Of a stretch of DNA of 32,000 nucleotides, positions 6,227 to 18,960 are shown one piece after another. The DNA comes from Candidatus Nanosynbacter lyticus (GTDB lineage: Bacteria; Patescibacteriota; Saccharimonadia; Saccharimonadales; Saccharimonadaceae): the NCBI RefSeq assembly GCF_000803625.1, contig NZ_CP007496.1:360001-392000 (forward strand), given 5' to 3'. A program made the position numbers and the translations under genes. Position 1 is the stretch's first letter. Each line of letters begins with the position of its first letter. The notes beneath the pieces are model-generated. The model saw nothing but the letters and a program-made list of their open reading frames with translations. It made no database searches and had not been told where the DNA came from.

Positions 6227-7438
6227 TTATTTCTTACTATAATACTTCGCCAAAAATGAATCACGGAACTCATAGAACATGCCATTTTCCAGACTTTCGC
6301 GAATGTCATCAACCAATTTGACGATAAATCGTTCGTTATGGATTGATAGCAACGTGCCAGCCAATGATTCGCGCGCATGCAAAAGATGACAGAGGTAAGC
6401 GGCAGTGTAATGGCGGCAAGTATAGCAGTCACAATCTTCCATAATCGGTTCAAACAGTTCGCGGTATTTTTGGCCGCGAACATTGACCCGACCAAACGGC
6501 GTGTAGGCGGCACCGTTTCTAGCCACACGCGTTGGACTGACGCAGTCAAAGGTATCAATCCCCTGTTCAATCGCCGCAAAAATGTCGTCTGGCTCAGAAA
6601 TACCGAGCAAATGCCGCGGCTTGTTTTCGGGCAAGATTTGATTGACCCACTGAATTGTCTGCGCCATGGTTTCCTTTTCTAGCGCACCGCCGATGCCGTA
6701 GCCATCAAAATCCATCGCACCTAGAAACTCAGCTGTTTGCTTGCGTAAATCTTCATAATTCGCACCCTGCAGCACGCCAAATAGCGCTTGATACGGCTTG
6801 TCGGGATGGGCTGCACGCAGACGTTTAACTTCCGCCAAACTCCGCTCCGCCCAAGCGTGCGTTCGCGCCAAGGCTTCCACTTGATACTCATACGGATCAA
6901 TCAGCGAGGTCAGCTCATCAAATGCGAAAGTAATATCCGCACCAATGCCCGCCTGAATCTGCATGGATAATTCTGGAGTAAATTTATGGTACGAGCCGTC
7001 GAGGTGTGATTTGAACACCACGCCATTTTCATCCACCCAAGCGTGGCGCGACGATTTTTTAGCGATGGCGATTTCCTCATCAACATCCGTACTCATCGCC
7101 AAAACCTTCTTAAAGCCCGAGCCCAAACTCAGCACCTGGAAACCGCCGCTATCAGTGAATGTCGGCCCTGACCAATTCATAAACTTGCCCAAATAGCCAG
7201 CCTTTTCAATCAGCTTGTGTCCTGGCTGCAAATATAGATGATAGGCGTTCGCTAGTACCGCCTGCGCACCGACATCTGCCACCATCTCCGGAATCATCGC
7301 CTTAACATTAGCCTTAGTTCCAACAACAATAAACGCCGGTGTTTTAATATCTCCATGCGGCGTGTGAATAATTCCGGTACGCGCCAGAGTGTCATTAAAT
7401 CGTGAAGTTATTTCAAAAGAAAAAGGTTTTTGTTGCAT
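6227..7438 (-). CDS. tgt: tRNA-guanine transglycosylase (queuine/preQ1 tRNA-ribosyltransferase family) with an atypical pocket
   Basis: ORF 6227-7501 trimmed to ATG 7438 (MQQKPFSFEITS...), which removes the overlap with the upstream gene. Motifs: TDSGGFQV, LFGVLQGANYEDLR, DGYGIGG, FDCVSPTR, and the Zn site CDCYTC...H (Cys336/338/341, His367 in my numbering). Confidence 0.9.
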   Translation of the reverse strand: MQQKPFSFEITSRFNDTLARTGIIHTPHGDIKTPAFIVVGTKANVKAMIPEMVADVGAQAVLANAYHLYLQPGHKLIEKAGYLGKFMNWSGPTFTDSGGFQVLSLGSGFKKVLAMSTDVDEEIAIAKKSSRHAWVDENGVVFKSHLDGSYHKFTPELSMQIQAGIGADITFAFDELTSLIDPYEYQVEALARTHAWAERSLAEVKRLRAAHPDKPYQALFGVLQGANYEDLRKQTAEFLGAMDFDGYGIGGALEKETMAQTIQWVNQILPENKPRHLLGISEPDDIFAAIEQGIDTFDCVSPTRVARNGAAYTPFGRVNVRGQKYRELFEPIMEDCDCYTCRHYTAAYLCHLLHARESLAGTLLSIHNERFIVKLVDDIRESLENGMFYEFRDSFLAKYYSKK

Positions 7439-7454
7439 AATCTGTCTGATTATA

Positions 7455-7961
7455 TCATGAAATGTCCTTAGGATTACCGCGCGACAAGCCAACAATGTCA
7501 CGAACTCTCACTAGATAAAGAACGTCGTCCTTAGAATTTTCCAATATCAGCATTGGCTCTCCAAGACTTAGTGGCAAATCTAAAATGTTTGATATTTTCT
7601 TAGTTAAATATGACGAGCCTTCAAGTTCTGGATTCCACAGCTCAACTTTATCCGCCCGTAAATTAAATGGTTCAGTCTCTTCGCCGACACCCACTTCTTT
7701 TAGGGTAGCGTCATTCCACGACACAGTACTCAGTAAATCACCAGGTAAACATCGATAGGCCATTACTACACATTCACCCTTAAACTCCCTCGGTTCACTA
7801 ATATTCCTAATGACACCACGAGACTCATCCTCGTATTGCTTTAATAACTCTAATTGCTCCTCCAAAGAAAAATCATAAAAAACCTCGCTATCAAATACTT
7901 CACTTACGTCCCGAGCAATATCATGCAGTAAATCAACAGCAAGCTCTAAGTCTTGCGTCAT
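7455..7961 (-). CDS. Hypothetical acidic cytoplasmic protein, 168 aa
   Basis: Clean ORF with a single possible ATG. It overlaps the upstream ORF by 29 nt and ends 16 nt before tgt. No TM segment, signal peptide or known motif. AT-rich. Confidence 0.55.
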   Translation of the reverse strand: MTQDLELAVDLLHDIARDVSEVFDSEVFYDFSLEEQLELLKQYEDESRGVIRNISEPREFKGECVVMAYRCLPGDLLSTVSWNDATLKEVGVGEETEPFNLRADKVELWNPELEGSSYLTKKISNILDLPLSLGEPMLILENSKDDVLYLVRVRDIVGLSRGNPKDIS

Positions 7962-9144
7962 TATTTAAGCTCTCAAATCTTAATAATTTATCGCGGCTAG
8001 GTACGGCGTATATTTTCCTTGATGAGCTACTTAAATCGTCATGAAGCAATAATTCAAGCACAGCATAAATGGCGCCGTCATACCTGACAAATTTCACTGC
8101 ATTAAAATAAGCCCTATCACTATCAATGAATTCGTACTGTAATTTATTATTTGCACCGCTTGGCGATATAACAAAACCTGAAAGACCAATAGCATCAAAC
8201 CCAAGCTCATCAGGCAGTGCTTTATTAAGCGTTTTTATGTGATTACGGACAGTATTTGAAAAATATGGCTCATCCGTATACTTAAGGTCTGTTGCCAGCT
8301 GCCAAGCTAATTGTTGAAACTCATCCGCAAAAACCGTCTCAAACAAATCATCACCCTTCTTATAATCATTCTCACAAATTGGCAGAATGTCAATTATGTC
8401 TTTTACATCGATGCGAAAAATCACTGAACTATCTTTTGGATCAACCATCTCCAAGATAGGACGATTATCTCGCCACACAAACAATGGCGCAGCTCCAAAT
8501 AATACTTGCGCTCTTGCCTCAACGTCAACGCCGTATTCAATGCCACCAGCTCTTCGTCTATACGCCCGACAATCTATTCTCACCTCGGTTCCCTGTGATA
8601 TATCACCCAGCACACCATTTAGGTCATCAATGAGACATTCTCTGGACGCAACATCCCTAATGTCATTTTTCTCAACAGCTTCCTGAGTTTTATCAACATA
8701 ATGACGTAACTTACGAATATATCGAGGCAATACACTGTCGTCTGGAAATAATTCTGCCGACAAAATAGCTTGCGGATCAAGCGGAAAATAATAATCATCT
8801 GGTCTATCATTTTCTACGGCACGTATACACAAGGCCGCCATTTTTTTAGTATAAATCGCAAAAGGTACTGGAGTCTCAGGATCATTTTCTAAAGATGACA
8901 CCAAATCGACCACGCCCTCAACAGCGCATAGATCATATGAACCATCTTCGGTCTGCCTGTAGCCAACAACCCTCGCTCGCTCGCCTTCAATTTCGTCTGT
9001 GCGCATGACTTTCTCCACATCACCAAGGGCCTCAGCCTCACTTTCCCCACCGAGGCATAAGTTTGCAGCAGCAATCTGTCGCCAATCATCTTTGGACAAT
9101 CGACCAAGTAAATCAATACCCGTCCCAGCTTTTGGTAGTTCCAT
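7933..9144 (-). CDS. Hypothetical acidic cytoplasmic protein, about 403 aa
   Basis: ORF 7933-9261 trimmed to ATG 9144 (MELPKAGTGIDLL...), because longer versions would cover the glgB promoter and start. No Walker A, TM segment or signal peptide. AT-rich. The start is uncertain. Confidence 0.55.
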   Translation of the reverse strand: MELPKAGTGIDLLGRLSKDDWRQIAAANLCLGGESEAEALGDVEKVMRTDEIEGERARVVGYRQTEDGSYDLCAVEGVVDLVSSLENDPETPVPFAIYTKKMAALCIRAVENDRPDDYYFPLDPQAILSAELFPDDSVLPRYIRKLRHYVDKTQEAVEKNDIRDVASRECLIDDLNGVLGDISQGTEVRIDCRAYRRRAGGIEYGVDVEARAQVLFGAAPLFVWRDNRPILEMVDPKDSSVIFRIDVKDIIDILPICENDYKKGDDLFETVFADEFQQLAWQLATDLKYTDEPYFSNTVRNHIKTLNKALPDELGFDAIGLSGFVISPSGANNKLQYEFIDSDRAYFNAVKFVRYDGAIYAVLELLLHDDLSSSSRKIYAVPSRDKLLRFESLNNDARLRACC

Positions 9145-9155
9145 GTATGTATCGT

Positions 9156-9167
9156 ATATTGCAATAT
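9156..9167. repeat. Perfect 12-bp palindrome ATATTGCAATAT in the divergent intergenic region
   Basis: The sequence is its own reverse complement. It lies 12 nt upstream of the 403-aa gene ATG and 35 nt upstream of the glgB -10 box. Confidence 0.8.
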
Positions 9168-9201
9168 GGCAGACTTCAAGCACAAGCATTGCCTCATGCG
9201 G

Positions 9202-9207
9202 TATACT
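9202..9207 (+). promoter_or_regulatory. -10 box TATACT placed 6 nt before the glgB ATG (probable leaderless transcript)
   Basis: TATACT-ataacc-ATG. No Shine-Dalgarno. No convincing -35 box. Confidence 0.35.
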
Positions 9208-9213
9208 ATAACC

Positions 9214-11181
9214 ATGAGCAAGAAAACCCTGGTTGAGCTTGACCCGTGGTTGGCGCCGCACGAGGGTGTCATCAGCGCCCGTGAGGCGTATGTTTCGTCG
9301 ACAATAATGAAGGTTCTGAGCGGTAAATCGCCGGCGAAGTTTGCCTTAGGATTTCATCATTTTGGCTTACATCAGACGGCGGCGGGCTGGACATTTCGTG
9401 AGTGGGCACCGAATGCTACGCACGTAGTGATGGTTGGCGAGTTTTCTGACTGGCAAGAACGCGAGGAGTTTACTCTGCAACCAGACGCACACGGTGAGTG
9501 GAGTGTTGATTTGCCAAAAGACGCACTGCACCACAGCCAGAAATATAAACTACGAGTCTATTGGCCAGGTGGCGACGGTTGGCGTTTGCCATCATACGCC
9601 ACCTACGTTATTCAAGATGATGACTCGGTGGATTTTTCGGCCGTCGTGTGGCGGCCTGATGAGCCATACCAGTGGCAGTATGATATTCCACCTGCTCCGC
9701 GCGTGCCGCTAATTTACGAGGCGCATGTTGGCATGAGTAGCGAGGAGGAAAAGGTTGCCAGTTTCAATGAATTTACCGCCAATATCCTGCCACGCATCAA
9801 ACAAGCCGGCTATAATACCATCCAGCTGATGGCCATCGCCGAGCACCCGTACTACGGCAGTTTTGGCTACCATGTCAGCAACTTTTTCGCCGTGTCGTCG
9901 CGCTTTGGCACGCCCGATGATTTCAAGCGGTTGGTTGACGCGGCGCACGGTTTGGGGCTACGCGTCATCATTGACATTGTTCATGCTCATGCCGCCAAAA
10001 ATGAAGTCGAAGGCCTCGGCAATTTCGCGGGTGATCCAACGCAATATTTCAAGGCTCACGACCATCCAGCCTGGGACTCGCGGTTGTTTGACTATGGCAA
10101 GCCGGAAGTACTGCACTTTTTGGCCAGCAATTGCCGCTGGTGGCTGGACGAGTACCATGTTGACGGCTTTCGATTTGACGGTGTAACCAGTATGCTATAT
10201 CATGACCACGGTTTGGGCAAAAGTTTCACCAGCTATGATGATTATTTTGGTGATGATGTTGATAAGGACGCATTGGTCTACCTGAGACTGGCAAATGATG
10301 TCATTCACGCTGTTCGCCCCGATGCCACGACCATTGCCGAGGAAATGAGCGGGCTGCCAGGCTTGGCGGCACTGACTGAATATGGCGGCCTGGGCTTTGA
10401 TTATCGGTTACAGATGGGCACGCCTGATCTTTGGATCAAGACATTGAAAGAAAAGCGCGACGAAGATTGGGACTTAGGTGGATTGGCTCACACACTGAGT
10501 TCGCACCGCCCAGAGGAAAAAGTCATCACTTATGCCGAGAGTCACGACCAAGCCTTGGTCGGCGACAAGACGCTGATTTTTCGTCTGATCGACAAAGCCA
10601 TGTACTGGAATATGGATAAAGCCGATCCCAATTTAACCGTGGAGCGCGGCATAGCCCTACATAAACTGATTCGACTACTGACCACTGGGCTACACGGCGG
10701 CGGTTACCTTAACTTTATGGGCAATGAATTTGGGCATCCTGAGTGGATTGATTTTCCGCGCGAGGGCAATAATTGGTCGTTTAAGCACGCTCGTCGGCAA
10801 TGGAATTTACGCGACAACGGCTTCTTAAAATATCAATGGCTGGGCGAATTTGACGCGGCGCTGATGAAGATTATTAGGCAAATTGATGATCCTAATATTC
10901 ACCATTTGACGGTTCGCCAATCTGATCATATGGTCAGTTTTATGCACGGCGACTTTTTCTTTGTTATTAATTTTTCCCCAAATAAATCCCACTCAGATTA
11001 CGAAGCACCCGCAGAAGCTGGCTCTTATAAATTGGCATTAAGTAGCGACGACAAGAACTTCGGCGGACAGGAGCGAATAGATCATAATTCCCGTTTTTTC
11101 ACTTCCCCAGCTGATAACAATCACAATCTTAAAGTTTACTTGCCAGCCAGAACGGGCATTATTTTACAGAAAGTTGACTAA
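9214..11181 (+). CDS. glgB: 1,4-alpha-glucan (glycogen) branching enzyme, GH13 eukaryote-like subtype
   Basis: ORF 9166-11181 trimmed to ATG 9214 (MSKKTLVELDPWLAPHEG). GH13 conserved regions DIVHAHAAKN, GFRFDGVTSMLY, IAEEMSG and YAESHDQALVGDK. Confidence 0.9.
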   Translation: MSKKTLVELDPWLAPHEGVISAREAYVSSTIMKVLSGKSPAKFALGFHHFGLHQTAAGWTFREWAPNATHVVMVGEFSDWQEREEFTLQPDAHGEWSVDLPKDALHHSQKYKLRVYWPGGDGWRLPSYATYVIQDDDSVDFSAVVWRPDEPYQWQYDIPPAPRVPLIYEAHVGMSSEEEKVASFNEFTANILPRIKQAGYNTIQLMAIAEHPYYGSFGYHVSNFFAVSSRFGTPDDFKRLVDAAHGLGLRVIIDIVHAHAAKNEVEGLGNFAGDPTQYFKAHDHPAWDSRLFDYGKPEVLHFLASNCRWWLDEYHVDGFRFDGVTSMLYHDHGLGKSFTSYDDYFGDDVDKDALVYLRLANDVIHAVRPDATTIAEEMSGLPGLAALTEYGGLGFDYRLQMGTPDLWIKTLKEKRDEDWDLGGLAHTLSSHRPEEKVITYAESHDQALVGDKTLIFRLIDKAMYWNMDKADPNLTVERGIALHKLIRLLTTGLHGGGYLNFMGNEFGHPEWIDFPREGNNWSFKHARRQWNLRDNGFLKYQWLGEFDAALMKIIRQIDDPNIHHLTVRQSDHMVSFMHGDFFFVINFSPNKSHSDYEAPAEAGSYKLALSSDDKNFGGQERIDHNSRFFTSPADNNHNLKVYLPARTGIILQKVD

Positions 11182-11194
11182 TCTCCTACCAATG

Positions 11195-11223
11195 TTGACT
11201 TTTTTACGCAAGTGTGGCATAAA
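11195..11223 (+). promoter_or_regulatory. Putative promoter (TTGACT, 17-nt spacer, TGg-CATAAA)
   Basis: TTGACT at 11195-11200, a 17-nt spacer, then CATAAA at 11218-11223 preceded by TG. It lies upstream of the 11233-11262 inverted repeat and the 11300 gene. Confidence 0.45.
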
Positions 11224-11232
11224 TTAATACAG

Positions 11233-11262
11233 ACTTTTGTTGACAATCCCGTCAACAAAAGT
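11233..11262. repeat. Perfect 12-bp inverted repeat with 6-nt spacer: ACTTTTGTTGAC-aatccc-GTCAACAAAAGT
   Basis: Arms at 11233-11244 and 11251-11262 are exact reverse complements. It lies between the putative promoter and the SD (GAGGAG 11288-11293) of the next gene. Confidence 0.85.
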
Positions 11263-11299
11263 AGTCCTTGCATGATTCAAAAGAGTAGAGGAGTACATC

Positions 11300-11707
11300 A
11301 TGCTGAAACTCAAACTTGCTGTCGCGTCCATCGCCCTGACTGGTCTGGTGCTACTCCTTATGGGGAGTACGTACCTAACGACGAGCTGCTCTATCATCTG
11401 TACAGCAGCAGCGCTGTCCCTGTCACTCCATCTAGTATTTAGATGGTTCACAGGAGAACAACACGACTATCTACTATGGCTCTTCTTGGCAGCAGCGTAC
11501 ATTATATCGGGATCGATGGCAATTAGTGTACTCCAAGACGTCGGAGCTGTCGATACGGCGCTTAGTGCTGTAATCGACCCGGTGCAGAAAATAGAGACAG
11601 TAGGGTATTATACCTCGTCTCTGAACTCTATCGCTATCCTTCTCGCGGTTATCATCCCATCGTCGCCCACGCGCGATGATGATGACGGCGATAGCGACGA
11701 GGGCTAA
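11300..11707 (+). CDS. Small membrane protein with acidic C-terminal tail, hypothetical
   Basis: 135 aa. GAGGAG lies 6 nt before the ATG. At least three hydrophobic segments (VASIALTGLVLLLMG, LLWLFLAAAYIISGSMAISV, SIAILLAVIIP). The tail reads RDDDDGDSDEG. Preferred over the overlapping ORF 11212-11442. Confidence 0.6.
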   Translation: MLKLKLAVASIALTGLVLLLMGSTYLTTSCSIICTAAALSLSLHLVFRWFTGEQHDYLLWLFLAAAYIISGSMAISVLQDVGAVDTALSAVIDPVQKIETVGYYTSSLNSIAILLAVIIPSSPTRDDDDGDSDEG

Positions 11708-11708
11708 C

Positions 11709-11775
11709 GCCCGCTAAGAAATAGTTCGCTTGAGACTTTTAGTCTAGGCTGGATCTCTCTTGGCGGGCTATTTCT
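11709..11775 (+). terminator. Possible structured terminator after the small membrane-protein gene
   Basis: GCCCGCTAAG (11709-11718) pairs with CTTGGCGGGC (11759-11768, one G.U pair). The stem encloses the small hairpin AGACT-ttt-AGTCT and is followed by the T-rich run TATTTCTATT. The long loop makes this uncertain. Confidence 0.3.
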
Positions 11776-11805: not shown

Positions 11806-13194
11806 GTGAAGAAAAAAGTACCAAAAATTATTGAACAATCACTAGCCAGAGTGGCTAATTTTTATAGCTTTGAGCCAGTGCATGATTTGGAAAAAATTGA
11901 CGACAGTTTAACGCCGAACATGCGAGCCCTGCGCATGACCATGACTATTGCTGAGCAACTCCTGAGTATGGGAGTGGTGGCGCGCGATGTGGTGCGTATG
12001 TCGCAAGGAATCACTCAGACCTATTGCCAGAAGCGCGTTCACATAGACATTAGTTATACATTGGTGACGGTTTCTCAAGATCGTGGCGTTAATCACGAGC
12101 CGCTGACGATGGCGCGGGTCATTGTACCAGACGACCCTAATTACCAATTAATCCAAGCCTTGCAGATACTCGCTCTTGATATTCGTCATAAACAACTTCC
12201 CTTGGAAGAAGCTGAAGAACGACTGAAGCAAATACTTAAAAAACCAAATAAGCACTCCGGGCTAGTCGTTTACGCAGCGGGAGGTCTGGTTAGCGCCGGT
12301 TCAGTTACTTTATATGGCGGCAGTCTACTAATGGCGGCCTTGGCGTTTTTACTGGGATTTTTAGCGACTGGTTTATTGCGATGGCTGGGGCATATTGGCG
12401 CACCATTATTTTACTCACAGGCTATTGTGGCTATTTTCGTGACACTGATAGCGGCGGGTACAGCTTGGTGTAGTAATTATTTAGGACTAAGTATCAATAC
12501 GACACTATTAGTCATTAGCGGCATTGTCTTATTAGTCGCGGGACTAATGTTTGTCGGCGCATTCCAGGATGCAATCGATGAATATTATATGACCGCTAAC
12601 GCCAGATTATTAAAAGTCGTAATGGCAACAGGTGGTGTAATTGCTGGCGTGATGGTCGGATTATACATTGCGACAAAATTTGGCATTACTTTCCCAGCAA
12701 CACCAGATCGATTAACATTAGCCGACAACCACACACAATATTTGGGCGCTGGAATTATTGCAGCAGCGTTCGTTCTGAGGAATCATTCTCGATTTTTGGG
12801 AATGGTTATATCTGGATTAATTGCAATTTTTGGCTGGTGGATTTCAAGATTAGCTATGAGCTTTGGTTTTGATATCGTAACAGCGAGCGGCATCGCTGCG
12901 GCGGCAATTGGGCTGGTCGCAGTCCTGACTTCCAGATTATGGAAATTCCCTTCCCTGGCGATTATTGCGGCGGGAATCGTACCACTAGTCCCAGGCTTGT
13001 CACTTTACAACGGATTAATGGGCGTCGTTCTATATCCGCCAAACAGCGCAAACTTCCTACCAGCCTTGGCTATCTTAGCGCGAGCAATCCTCATCGGCGT
13101 AGCGGTGGCAATTGGCGCATCATTCGGAAACGTCGTCGGCCGCCCAATTCGCCGACAATTCATTAATTTATTCCGTCGTGGCACTCAAGCATAA
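11806..13194 (+). CDS. Threonine/serine exporter (ThrE) family membrane protein
   Basis: 462 aa. Soluble N-terminal domain (MTMTIAEQLLSMGVVARDVVRMSQGITQTY..., ThrE/DUF1212-like from recall) followed by about 10 hydrophobic segments. GTG start at 11806 without an SD, so an internal ATG (11920) is possible. Confidence 0.65.
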   Translation: MKKKVPKIIEQSLARVANFYSFEPVHDLEKIDDSLTPNMRALRMTMTIAEQLLSMGVVARDVVRMSQGITQTYCQKRVHIDISYTLVTVSQDRGVNHEPLTMARVIVPDDPNYQLIQALQILALDIRHKQLPLEEAEERLKQILKKPNKHSGLVVYAAGGLVSAGSVTLYGGSLLMAALAFLLGFLATGLLRWLGHIGAPLFYSQAIVAIFVTLIAAGTAWCSNYLGLSINTTLLVISGIVLLVAGLMFVGAFQDAIDEYYMTANARLLKVVMATGGVIAGVMVGLYIATKFGITFPATPDRLTLADNHTQYLGAGIIAAAFVLRNHSRFLGMVISGLIAIFGWWISRLAMSFGFDIVTASGIAAAAIGLVAVLTSRLWKFPSLAIIAAGIVPLVPGLSLYNGLMGVVLYPPNSANFLPALAILARAILIGVAVAIGASFGNVVGRPIRRQFINLFRRGTQA

Positions 13195-15930: not shown

Positions 15931-18453
15931 CTAGCTTTGAGCCGGCGGATTTTTAGATTCATCAACCTCTGAAATCGACCCAGTAGGCGGATAATTGCCT
16001 GAAGCCTGAATAGGCGCCGGTGGGTACTGGCCTGGCGATTGTTGATAATAACCCTGCGGCGGATATTGTTGTGAAGGCATAGGACTCTGCTGTGATGGAT
16101 ATTGCTGTGGGGACACAGGACCTTGCTGATAGACCTGTTGCTGATACGGCAACTGCTGCGGATACTGGCCGACTACATACTGCGGGTAGGCATTAAATTT
16201 TCGACGACTACTGACGGAAACGATAATGGCAATAATTGACACTATCAAGAATAATGCTCCCGTAGAGGCAATTACCACAACTACTACAACCATCACAGTG
16301 TCATTGTCCGTCTTATCTGTCTCGGACTTTTTATTCGCCCCAGCATCTGCTACGCCACCAGGCTCTTTGTCAGACTTTTTAGGTTCTACATAATCATCTG
16401 GTGTATTAGAAGCTACATCAATCATCTTTGTGACTAGATAATTGCCGGAGTATTTTTTATCAAGCTTCTCAAACTTATCTTTCGCCTTAGAATATTTACC
16501 CTGAGAGAAATCCTCTAAACCATCTTTCCATAGTTTAGTTAATTCGCCTTCAGACGAAAGCTTAACATTATTTTTCTTAGCCATGCTTTTCAGGTCGGCA
16601 ATATCACGGAAAACGCCACTTCCAAAACATGAATTATTCTTTTTATCACTGTTTGCACAGGCTGCACCACCATAAGTATTCAGCCCTATTTGCTTACCAT
16701 CTTTATCAAAAGCCGGACCGCCACTATTTCCAGCGGCAATTTGTGCCGTCATCGAGAATAATTTGTGACCACCAGCGTCTCTTCTCATGCCACTGACACT
16801 ACCCTGAGTTACTGTTGGCACAGTCTTAGCTTGCTTTGTTTGTGTGCCATTATCAACAACTGCTGGATAGCCAATTGCCGTTACCTGATCACCCTGAGAC
16901 AAACCATTACTATCACCTAAGTCAACTGCCGGGAATCTACCGTCAATCTTTAAAATTGCCACATCGGTTTTGTCGCTATTTAAATCCATCCTAGCCTGTC
17001 GCAAATTGACTTCTGCATCAATCTTCTTAGCGCTAACATTGGTCGGGGTCTTCTTCCATCTCGAAATTTCCGGATTACTTCTATCATGAACAATCGGGTC
17101 ATTTGAGGTCTGAATAATATAATCATATCGATCATTTTCTGACCGAATATTATCAATCGGCACGTTATCAATAAGACCTTGGATAGCTGCCGTTGCAGAC
17201 TGATCACCGCCCTGTGATTTTTTTATTAGATCAACTAGGGCTTGTCTGGTTATATAGCCAGCATTTATCATGAAATGACAATAAGTGTCCCACTGCTCTC
17301 TTGACCGCAGCCCCCTGATCATACTCTGGTTGGCGACTTCTGTCACATGGCCGTTTGTAGCAATATAGCCATCATCCGAAACAATTGAGCCGCTACCAAT
17401 CCCTCCAGTACACAGACCATTTAATCGCATAGTAGCACCATTTTGAGCTGTGTATATCATATCAGCGCAACGAATTGTCCCGACACGAACTGTAGAGATT
17501 TGGTTCCTAGCTACCACTTTAATAATAGATTTCTCATCTAAAGAATTTAGGGTATTTGTGGTATTCTTATCCTTCGAGAAATTCTCTACCTTAGCTAGGC
17601 TTATTCCCGAATCAGCCAGATGACCACTTCCGTCATTAGCGCTAACCAGATAACTCTCGTCTGGTTGATGGAAAGTAACAGCTCCCACTAACGATTCCAG
17701 CTGATCAATGTACGGCTGCATATATGCATTCTTGCTCAGCGCAAATATCGATATCCAGTAAGGTCTACCATTCTGGACAGTCATATATATTGTGCTCTCA
17801 CCAGTTTTCTGCCACTTACCGTCATAGGTACTTCCATAATCCACGACCAGTTTCTTAAACTGCAGACCAGAAATTGTCACATCGCCAGTGTGATATTTCA
17901 TATTTGGGTCTTTTTTCTTACGGCTATTGATATCGCCCTGAAGCAGCAGGTCTAAGTCGGAATATTTCTTAGTATCCTTATACTCATCGGGCATCGTCGA
18001 GCGGTCAAAATAGTTCTTCTTGCGCGAAGTTGTAATCGAAAGCTCTGGCATAATTTTCGTAAGTGAAAAGTTGCCATCTTTCTTATCTTTCTCTGGGTTC
18101 TGCCGATATATCAATTTAAGAATTGCGTAAGCGCGGCTTTCATTTAGTTCATCTTCACTGTATAAGTCGGCACGATATTCCTTACTGTTAGATTCTTTGC
18201 GAAGAACGTGGCCTTCACCAACAAACGTCTCCTTATCATATTGCAACGAAAATCCGTACTTAGAGACAACCTTACGATAATGCTGAGAGTTTTCCTCAGA
18301 AAGTAAGTCCTGAATCTTCTTCTTTGCTGAGCTACTAACGCCGGACGAACGATTATTATTAAGAACAACCACCCCAATAATGATTGAGATTAAAAAGATT
18401 ACACCTAGGACAATTGCTAAGATTCTTAATTTCTTAATTGATTTTTGATTCAT
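15931..18453 (-). CDS. Double-pass membrane protein with an extracytoplasmic trypsin-like (S1 / HtrA-like fold) serine protease domain and a cytoplasmic Gln/Pro/Tyr-rich tail
   Basis: 840 aa. TM1 is ILAIVLGVIFLISIIIGVVVL (aa 11-31). Catalytic triad candidates: His369 (YIATNGHVTE), Asp497 (KTDVAILKI), Ser577 (AAGNSGGPAFD). TM2 is VMVVVVVVIASTGALFLIVSIIAIIVSV (aa 720-747). The tail covers aa 748-840. Confidence 0.8.
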   Translation of the reverse strand: MNQKSIKKLRILAIVLGVIFLISIIIGVVVLNNNRSSGVSSSAKKKIQDLLSEENSQHYRKVVSKYGFSLQYDKETFVGEGHVLRKESNSKEYRADLYSEDELNESRAYAILKLIYRQNPEKDKKDGNFSLTKIMPELSITTSRKKNYFDRSTMPDEYKDTKKYSDLDLLLQGDINSRKKKDPNMKYHTGDVTISGLQFKKLVVDYGSTYDGKWQKTGESTIYMTVQNGRPYWISIFALSKNAYMQPYIDQLESLVGAVTFHQPDESYLVSANDGSGHLADSGISLAKVENFSKDKNTTNTLNSLDEKSIIKVVARNQISTVRVGTIRCADMIYTAQNGATMRLNGLCTGGIGSGSIVSDDGYIATNGHVTEVANQSMIRGLRSREQWDTYCHFMINAGYITRQALVDLIKKSQGGDQSATAAIQGLIDNVPIDNIRSENDRYDYIIQTSNDPIVHDRSNPEISRWKKTPTNVSAKKIDAEVNLRQARMDLNSDKTDVAILKIDGRFPAVDLGDSNGLSQGDQVTAIGYPAVVDNGTQTKQAKTVPTVTQGSVSGMRRDAGGHKLFSMTAQIAAGNSGGPAFDKDGKQIGLNTYGGAACANSDKKNNSCFGSGVFRDIADLKSMAKKNNVKLSSEGELTKLWKDGLEDFSQGKYSKAKDKFEKLDKKYSGNYLVTKMIDVASNTPDDYVEPKKSDKEPGGVADAGANKKSETDKTDNDTVMVVVVVVIASTGALFLIVSIIAIIVSVSSRRKFNAYPQYVVGQYPQQLPYQQQVYQQGPVSPQQYPSQQSPMPSQQYPPQGYYQQSPGQYPPAPIQASGNYPPTGSISEVDESKNPPAQS

Positions 18454-18465
18454 TTTATTACTACC

Positions 18466-18960
18466 TTACCTATAATTCACAAATTGCAGCGGCGTGTCAT
18501 AATCATTTTCACGCACTAAACTAATGACTTTTTGTAATTCATCTTTTGAAGCAGAGGTAACGCGGACGAGGTCGCCCTGGATTTGCGGTTTGGCCTTTGG
18601 AGCGTTGGTGCGAATATCTGCAGCAATCCGCTTTGCCATCGCTTGATCAAGACCCTGCTTAAACGGTATCTCCCAAGTAGTCTTCAGATTTGAAGTAACT
18701 TTTTCCTTAGTGAGGTCTAGAGATTTGCTTGACTGACCACGAGCCGCCAATTTCTTACGCACAATATCCAGTACCGCGTCAACCTGCCACTCATTATCAC
18801 CAGTGAGCTTCAAGCCTTTTTTATCATCCAGCCAGTCAATTCCAGCACTCGTCCCCTTAAAATCGTACCGCCCTTGGATTTCTTTTTCCGCCTGCATGAA
18901 TACGTTGTTCATCTCAGCTTTGTCAATTTCTGACACAATATCAAATGAAAAACTTGCCAT
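18466..18960 (-). CDS. yajQ: YajQ family (UPF0234) nucleotide-binding protein
   Basis: 164 aa. MASFSFDIVSEIDKAEMNNVFMQAEKEIQGRYDFKGTSAGIDW matches the YajQ N-terminus from recall. SD AGGAGGATAA before the ATG. 12 nt upstream of the protease gene. Confidence 0.8.
   Translation of the reverse strand: MASFSFDIVSEIDKAEMNNVFMQAEKEIQGRYDFKGTSAGIDWLDDKKGLKLTGDNEWQVDAVLDIVRKKLAARGQSSKSLDLTKEKVTSNLKTTWEIPFKQGLDQAMAKRIAADIRTNAPKAKPQIQGDLVRVTSASKDELQKVISLVRENDYDTPLQFVNYR

Follow-up and report, generated by a model that had tools for sequence, protein, structure and literature searches.

Evidence that a variable, recurrently inactivated four-module orphan gene of oral Saccharibacteria is split by a 2-bp deletion in Candidatus Nanosynbacter lyticus

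The window analyzed here is a stretch of 32,000 nucleotides (nt) from the genome of Candidatus Nanosynbacter lyticus (contig NZ_CP007496.1, positions 360,001 to 392,000 of the forward strand). Next to the tRNA-guanine transglycosylase gene tgt, on the minus strand, lie two overlapping open reading frames (ORFs) of 403 and 168 amino acids (ORF1 and ORF2), which an initial annotation had described as a two-gene cassette. We conclude that positions 7455 to 9144 almost certainly hold a single gene, hereafter gene X, that carries a genuine 2-bp deletion (Table 1). On the whole, we also consider it likely that the fuller picture holds, in which this one gene with its real deletion encodes a four-module orphan protein, occupies a variable locus, and is recurrently inactivated.

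The relatives of X leave little room for a two-gene organization. When the ORF1 product was used as the query, it retrieved 347 relatives, and nearly all of the 120 listed were 557 to 579 amino acids long, close to the sum of 403 and 168; each of these 120 matches covered 80 to 99% of ORF1. The ORF2 product as a lone query retrieved only three fragments. Orthologues from 28% to 99.8% identity are single ORFs of 557 to 580 amino acids that cross the junction unbroken (...LRFESLNNDAKDLELAV...; longer stretch, ...SRDKLLRFESLNNDAKDLELAVDLLHDIARD...), and a 32-sequence alignment (A2) extending down to 20% identity is continuous through it. At the DNA level, the relatives read GCAAAAGAC where the window reads GCAAGAC, so that a run of four A's has lost two. 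The deletion falls after codon Ala397, removes Lys398, and shifts the frame; with AA put back, the frame is open for 563 codons. This gap is the sole internal indel relative to loci L001, L003, and L005 (95 to 98.4% identical over 1.9 kb), and no other occurs in the 8,514 bp over which the window and L005 align at 99.35% identity. The ORF2 start codon already exists out of frame in intact alleles and was brought into frame by the deletion. The initial annotation had the ORF coordinates, the 29-nt overlap, and the 16-nt gap to tgt right, and it was the reading of two genes that failed. ORF1 would be 442 amino acids long if started at GTG 9261, and the start at ATG 9144 is backed by conserved "ME.." N termini in the A2 alignment; no Shine-Dalgarno sequence was found at this start.

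The deletion is also found in nature. An exact look-up of the 168-amino-acid product returned 11 contigs. The five that were retrieved (Logan accessions SRR26142725, SRR26142728, SRR18033964, SRR18033970, and SRR18033973; loci L097 to L101) all carry the deletion, are 100% identical to the window over 1.0 to 2.0 kb, and show a 416-amino-acid ORF overlapping the 168-amino-acid ORF. The same lesion occurs in the record of Candidatus Minimicrobia vallesae IHU2 (L008). Two other loci (L102 and L103), at 99.8% identity to the window, keep the AAAA run intact. JGI metagenomes, scanned for the exact junction pattern with zero to two extra bases, gave no matches. Because the deletion is identical in contigs from five independent sequencing runs, we regard it as real, and the deletion allele circulates in natural populations. 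Since all copies are 100% identical, the split allele appears to be young and not maintained over time, and it is most likely a young loss-of-function allele. It resembles the frameshift-split genes and young pseudogenes of reduced bacterial genomes in having continuous orthologues, one small homopolymer indel, two overlapping ORFs, and further null alleles segregating.

The protein encoded by the undamaged gene is built from repeated modules. AlphaFold2 (AF2) was used to model full-length P0004, a family member 95% identical to the window, from the family alignment (mean predicted local distance difference test score [pLDDT], 79.5; predicted template modeling score [pTM], 0.49). The model contains four modules (residues 31 to 145, 154 to 269, 287 to 405, and 409 to 569), each consisting of two helices followed by a beta-sheet. 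A profile self-comparison paired residues 263 to 575 with residues 9 to 274 over 255 columns (probability, 95%; E = 3.8e-8). Using gap-free columns, the N-terminal half scored 55.8 against the C-terminal half, and 150 column shuffles gave 14.7 ± 2.6 with a maximum of 23.5, so that none of the 150 reached the observed value; a cruder earlier control, in which gapped columns were shuffled, was noisy. From this self-alignment of the halves follows the architecture A-B-A'-B', which arose by duplication of a two-module unit inside one protein. The frameshift lies in the linker between A' and B', a module boundary, and the supposed pair of paralogous partner proteins is thus an artifact of the frameshift, the repeat being internal to one protein. 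A threefold motif had been proposed as well. The similarity of the two halves does exceed the shuffled background, as the same control shows. Homology also joins motif 1 (PILEMVDPKD...), the C-terminal strands of module B, to motif 3 (PMLILENSKD...), those of B' (hhalign, E = 2.3e-5). Motif 2 (AVLELLLHDD...) is misplaced in that series; it ends module A', and its true partner is ALCVRTVEND..YYFPLD in module A, the first of the four.

Module B' is the best-conserved part of the family, with the motifs YRCLP, NPE/D, DFPLSxGEP, and YLVRxRDI, and it is what ORF2 encodes (MTQDLELAVDLLHDIAR...). Modeled alone with AF2, ORF2 folds into two long helices and a beta-sheet (pLDDT, 89; pTM, 0.84). The invariant positions of B' (Phe, Gln, Pro, Gly, Pro, and Tyr) are probably structural rather than of a catalytic type. 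Members with fewer modules occur naturally, including A plus B' (P0146), A' plus B' (P0150), and A plus A' plus B' (P0142, P0152, and P0153). In addition, P0028, from an ENA contig (524 amino acids), has lost about 52 residues of module A in frame (…LCLGGE|NDPETPVPF…).

The family appears to be restricted to oral Saccharibacteria, with no detectable relatives elsewhere. The window itself belongs to an oral saccharibacterial genome of the family Nanosynbacteraceae. Its closest genome matches are metagenome-assembled genomes of uncultured Candidatus Saccharibacteria and Candidatus Minimicrobia vallesae IHU2, at 89 to 95% protein identity. The X family comprises 30 representatives (50% clustering) among 1.84 billion proteins, 10 of them below 1e-30, and its members are annotated at the source as "hypothetical protein." Searches of Pfam, NCBIfam, PADLOC, and PHROGs with both ORFs, full-length relatives, and 32 members gave nothing below an E value of about 0.03. 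Specifically, PADLOC models assigned no family to any of six queries, PHROGs gave no match below 0.05, and a scan of IMG/VR found no relative. Sequence profile searches of the PDB with the whole family and with B' by itself were without significant match, and Foldseek searches of the PDB and BFVD with the full model and with B' gave no match at E ≤ 1e-3 (the best PDB match had an E value of 3e-3 with the full model and of 0.21 with B'; nothing in BFVD). The claim that the sequence belongs to no known family is therefore borne out. Foldseek also gave local matches to SH3-like small beta-barrels, namely of about 80 to 100 residues to chains of bL19 (probability, ~1.0) and, weakly for module B', to SspB and SH3b. 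These matches have E values of 0.01 to 2 and TM scores of 0.2 to 0.44, come without sequence similarity, and differ in that the X modules add a helical hairpin.

In composition, X stands apart from its surroundings, as the initial annotation had noticed. Both split ORFs are strongly acidic (isoelectric point [pI], 4.3 to 4.6), and of the 21 proteins encoded in the window, X is the most negatively charged per residue. The repaired protein has a pI of 4.49 and a net charge of -43, and other alleles reach a pI of 4.2 to 4.4 and a net charge of -61 to -65. There is no transmembrane segment (maximum KD19, 1.18) and no signal-like N terminus, again as had been stated. The guanine-plus-cytosine (GC) content of X is 0.415, compared with 0.474 for the window and 0.48 to 0.50 for tgt, glgB, and tuf. 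In 1-kb windows, it is 0.39 to 0.41 across 7501 to 9000 and 0.46 to 0.55 elsewhere, and in three closer allele classes it lies 3 to 8 points under that of the flanks. The HD gene, the gene for an 840-amino-acid protease, and orf249 have GC contents about as low as that of X.

Gene X is far more variable than the genes beside it. Across loci, identity to the window is 28 to 99% for X, 87 to 97% for Tgt, and about 97% for EF-Tu. The rate of nonsynonymous change (dN) in X is about 9-fold that of tgt. Its ratio of nonsynonymous to synonymous change (dN/dS) is 0.11 to 0.23, compared with 0.03 for tgt; calculated per module it is 0.12 to 0.30, never above 1, and X is under purifying selection where it is intact. 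Synonymous distances (dS) are discordant between the two genes. Between the window and L001, X has a dS of 0.13 and tgt one of 0.70; between the window and L013, the values are 2.3 (X) and 0.75 (tgt). Examined segment by segment, the locus shows a mosaic pattern of identity. L005 has 55 differences from our sequence, 30 of which fall within the N-terminal two-thirds of X; tgt has none. A second local hot spot beside X is the gene for a ThrE-family permease (11806 to 13194, plus strand), which holds 17 of the 55 differences (1.2%); fusA and the HD gene, like tgt, are free of them.

One stretch, a 1,708-bp block, is 100% identical to L008 (NZ_CP076459.1), whose flanks are only 67 to 86% identical. 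We had considered this block as a clean horizontal transfer and have downgraded that reading, since frameshifts break each of the genes tgt, glgB, and tuf in L008 (8040 to 12250 of that record) and the genome was completed by long-range PCR with TM7x as a reference. According to the Ca. M. vallesae genome paper, MiSeq and Nanopore sequencing were combined with long-range PCR, and TM7x served as the reference for mapping and comparison. The paper reports 1,017 coding sequences for this record, and for a sister genome 1,324; both are about 0.7 Mb in size. Two readings of the block remain, a transferred allele and a chimeric assembly, and these features suggest that L008 contains indel errors, chimerism, or both.

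The window's lesion is one of several in X. Leaving out four error-prone assemblies and redundant loci, we found X disrupted in 8 of 81 loci, compared with none of the 155 complete genes that flank it in those loci (Fisher's exact test, P = 1.5e-4). The eight lesions are five nonsense mutations (TGG>TAG twice, GAG>TAG, GAG>TAA, and CGA>TGA) and three single-base indels (T6>T7, GG>G, and AA>AAA). The near-identical loci L102 and L103 carry Ser322stop (...AIGL*GFVIS), and L005, which is 98.4% identical in X, carries Trp477stop through a change of TGG to TAG. Together, the AA deletion, Ser322stop, and Trp477stop amount to three independent knockouts among alleles at least 98.4% identical, the lineage to which the window's allele belongs. 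X is thus often inactivated in nature, by independent lesions.

The deletion need not have abolished the protein. Its position at a domain boundary and the start codon gained in frame set X apart from an ordinary young pseudogene, so a two-piece product is still conceivable. On this account, the split would be tolerated, with the cell making both a 403-amino-acid product (A-B-A') and, through translational coupling at the ATG in the overlap, a 168-amino-acid product (B'), and the two working as a two-subunit protein. The break exactly in an intermodule linker, the 29-nt overlap around a preexisting ATG that the deletion framed, and the confident fold of B' by itself are what one would expect, as are the natural members with fewer modules and the recovery of the split allele from at least five runs; the pTM of the full-length model might likewise point to loosely connected modules. 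Against this, the ORF2 ATG is preceded only by a weak GAGAG at 9 nt and by no strong Shine-Dalgarno sequence, and the complete identity of the split copies marks them as young. Furthermore, sister alleles have nonsense mutations inside modules (Ser322stop and Trp477stop), which speaks for plain loss of function, and in no lineage are the two pieces conserved as genes of their own. We consider a functional two-piece protein quite improbable and prefer to see the split as a loss-of-function allele. A toxin-antitoxin-like overlapping pair was also considered for ORF1 and ORF2 and was rejected.

Could X instead be an accessory factor of the downstream Tgt, as had first been guessed, co-transcribed with it and acting in queuosine or tRNA modification? 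The spacing of 16 to 19 nt is short, and no terminator was predicted between X and tgt, which makes co-transcription plausible. X lies between the divergent glgB and tuf in all 96 related loci; in most of them the order is X, tgt, tuf, and in the 28%-identical class it is tgt, X, tuf, so adjacency and co-orientation hold in both orders down to 28% identity. One distant member also adjoins a Sua5/YrdC gene, which likewise belongs to tRNA modification. Yet about 23 loci contain glgB, X, and then tuf at 180 nt, without tgt. Where X directly precedes tuf, tgt is absent from that locus, and genome-wide loss and relocation are both compatible with this. The two most distant members lie outside the glgB-tuf slot, and one of them, P0151, sits amid unrelated small genes, so the co-occurrence with tgt is common and not general. 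X is also null in the 8 disrupted loci with tgt intact, its dN is many times that of tgt, the dS values of the two genes disagree, and no similarity to proteins of the queuosine pathway, the 7-deazaguanine pathway, or DpdA systems was found in Pfam or NCBIfam. Finally, Tgt itself had been called atypical, and it is not. It matches Pfam TGT (3.8e-124) and is canonical by its score of 412 bits to the equivalog TIGR00430, above the cutoff of 307. A role of X as an accessory of Tgt is very unlikely on this evidence, and X has no obligate link to tgt.

The remaining idea is that the gene is intact and functional in this organism, its frameshift being due to an error of sequencing or assembly or to programmed ribosomal frameshifting. 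It is hardly credible. The lesion does lie in a homopolymer, and L008, the only genome record with the same lesion, is indel ridden. However, contigs assembled independently from five short-read runs have the identical deletion, no other indel separates the window from L005 over 8.5 kb, and intact relatives need no shift; repair would require +1 or -2 at a non-slippery site, with loss of a codon. A programmed frameshift of the prfB or dnaX type was rejected because every relative apart from the identical allele stays in a single frame at the site.

With the gene read as a single, often inactivated orphan, we can propose a role. X may be a conditionally dispensable binding or scaffold protein without enzymatic activity, a view suggested by the absence of invariant catalytic-type residues, only Pro, Gly, and aromatic structural positions being invariant. 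It might act in epibiont-host or other conflict, as a decoy, an immunity-like binder, or an effector; its loss would be tolerated or sometimes favored, and it would not be a Tgt cofactor. A conflict role is suggested by the lower GC content, the deep allele classes in a fixed slot, the exchange between lineages, the recurrent nulls, and the purifying selection on intact copies. Judged from sequence patterns such as these, we hold it to be possible, at somewhat less than even chance. The fallback guess of the initial annotation, an unrelated accessory or conflict module, fits the same evolutionary pattern. Several observations weigh against the picture drawn here. A dN/dS below 1 throughout X means that there is no direct signal of diversifying selection. 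The strongest evidence for transfer, the 1,708-bp block, is found in an assembly that is indel ridden and may be chimeric. A few of the disruptions could be assembly errors, since some of the disrupted copies are from metagenome contigs of low coverage (3 to 7×). And the co-directional adjacency of X and tgt, in both orders and across such divergence, is compatible with a functional link.

Like the variable accessory or conflict loci that lie between housekeeping genes, such as immunity or defense islands and antigenic loci, X has low GC content, deep allele classes in a fixed slot, gene-tree discordance with its neighbors, and recurrent loss of function. In contrast to them, X is a single, cytoplasmic-looking protein with no adjoining gene for a toxin, nuclease, ATPase, or mobile element, with no immunity match in PADLOC or Pfam, and with no dN/dS above 1. 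The SUKH and Imm immunity families gave no Pfam match to X, and its neighbors are glgB, tgt, and tuf, with no toxin gene. Ocr, ArdA, and immunity proteins of the barstar/Im type are acidic DNA-mimic or inhibitor proteins. X is like them in composition only (net charge of -43 to -65, pI of 4.2 to 4.5, no catalytic motifs, modular build); it is far larger (563 amino acids), is chromosomal, lies beside translation genes, and shows no similarity to them by sequence or Foldseek. ArdA and Ocr gave no Pfam match, and neither was among the top 50 listed Foldseek matches in the PDB.

A bolder version of the conflict role, which we consider unlikely, is that X founds an unrecognized class of epibiont conflict proteins, acidic A-B-A'-B' binders with a new fold that are used against Actinomyces or Schaalia hosts. 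The protein would then either neutralize toxins delivered by the host, in a decoy or immunity-like manner, or be itself a delivered effector. Hosts of oral Saccharibacteria mount Esx-dependent defenses, according to a 2026 preprint (PMC13622651) that is silent on X. We found nothing on X in the literature on hypervariability and recombination in Saccharibacteria or on queuosine.

Table 1. Window positions of gene X, its parts, and adjoining features
Feature	Position	Strand	Basis
Gene X, ~563 codons ancestrally, split here by a frameshift	7455..9144	-	Single-ORF orthologues; repaired frame; dN/dS 0.11-0.30
ORF1, 403 amino acids: modules A-B-A' and tail	7933..9144	-	ORF list; limits from AF2 model of P0004
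ORF1 modules	A, ~9093-8749; B, ~8724-8377; A', ~8325-7969	-	AF2 model of the 95%-identical P0004
ORF1 end: 6-residue out-of-frame tail RLRACC (tail peptide ...SLNNDARLRACC), then TGA inside ORF2	TGA 7935-7933	-	
ORF2, 168 amino acids: module B'	7455..7961 (ATG 7961-7959)	-	ORF list; AF2 model
Lesion: AA left of the ancestral AAAA	7953..7954	-	DNA alignments with relatives
Spacer from X stop to tgt ATG, 16 nt, without terminator-like hairpin	7439..7454	-	
tgt, 403 amino acids, bacterial tRNA-guanine(34) transglycosylase	6227..7438	-	Pfam TGT; TIGR00430
Divergent X/glgB intergenic region, 51 bp	9145..9195	.	glgB at 9196-11181 (+)
Block of 1,708 bp shared at 100% identity with L008 (Ca. Minimicrobia vallesae IHU2)	7501..9208	.	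Identity scan

The window covers the str/S10 region, with rpoB, rpoC, rpsL, rpsG, a DUF520 gene, the gene for an 840-amino-acid trypsin-like protease, fusA, an HD gene, and the ThrE-family gene, followed by orf135, glgB, X, tgt, tuf, orf249, and ldh. Rfam and tRNA scans of the window returned nothing, including no preQ1 riboswitch. The start of tgt is called in some related contigs at a GTG 63 nt upstream, which gives 424 amino acids and a 47-nt overlap with X, and in other relatives at the ATG (403 amino acids); ATG 7438 fits the Pfam model better, and neither start has a Shine-Dalgarno sequence. The tgt-less loci (L030, L032 to L036, L038 to L048, L050, L053, L054, L089, and L092) belong to a subgroup of Saccharibacteria. 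The Sua5/YrdC neighbor mentioned above is in L016 (759 to 2757), where the distant three-module member P0149 (476 amino acids) is followed after 28 nt by a gene of the Sua5/YciO/YrdC family (t6A tRNA modification). This second adjacency to a tRNA modification gene may be coincidence.

Two other places were noted in the window. The spacer between glgB and the ThrE-family gene (11181 to 11747) is a second variable spot, with no counterpart in L001, L006, or L007, where blastn alignments break at 11180 and 11748. It contains orf135 (11300 to 11707, plus strand), which encodes a 135-amino-acid hydrophobic protein with an acidic tail (DDDDGDSDEG), and L013 has an 89-amino-acid gene at that place. 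A second low-GC insertion (~0.42 to 0.44) lies between rpsG and fusA on the minus strand (15931 to 18960). It encodes the 840-amino-acid protein, which has an N-terminal hydrophobic stretch and a C-terminal trypsin-like S1 peptidase domain (Trypsin_2, 4.9e-20), together with a DUF520/YajQ-like protein of 164 amino acids.

By itself, the split of X is an ordinary event in a mildly interesting orphan family and opens no long-standing question. Reading the two ORFs as one gene keeps a spurious two-gene system out of the catalogue, and it brings into view a lineage-restricted family with a confidently predicted structure in the fusA-tuf interval of human oral Saccharibacteria. The phylum has become genetically tractable only recently. 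If X did found a class of conflict proteins, the exchange of its alleles and its recurrent knockouts would record an arms race. Genes like X are reasonable candidates for epibiont-host specificity or conflict, with intact and null natural alleles at hand.

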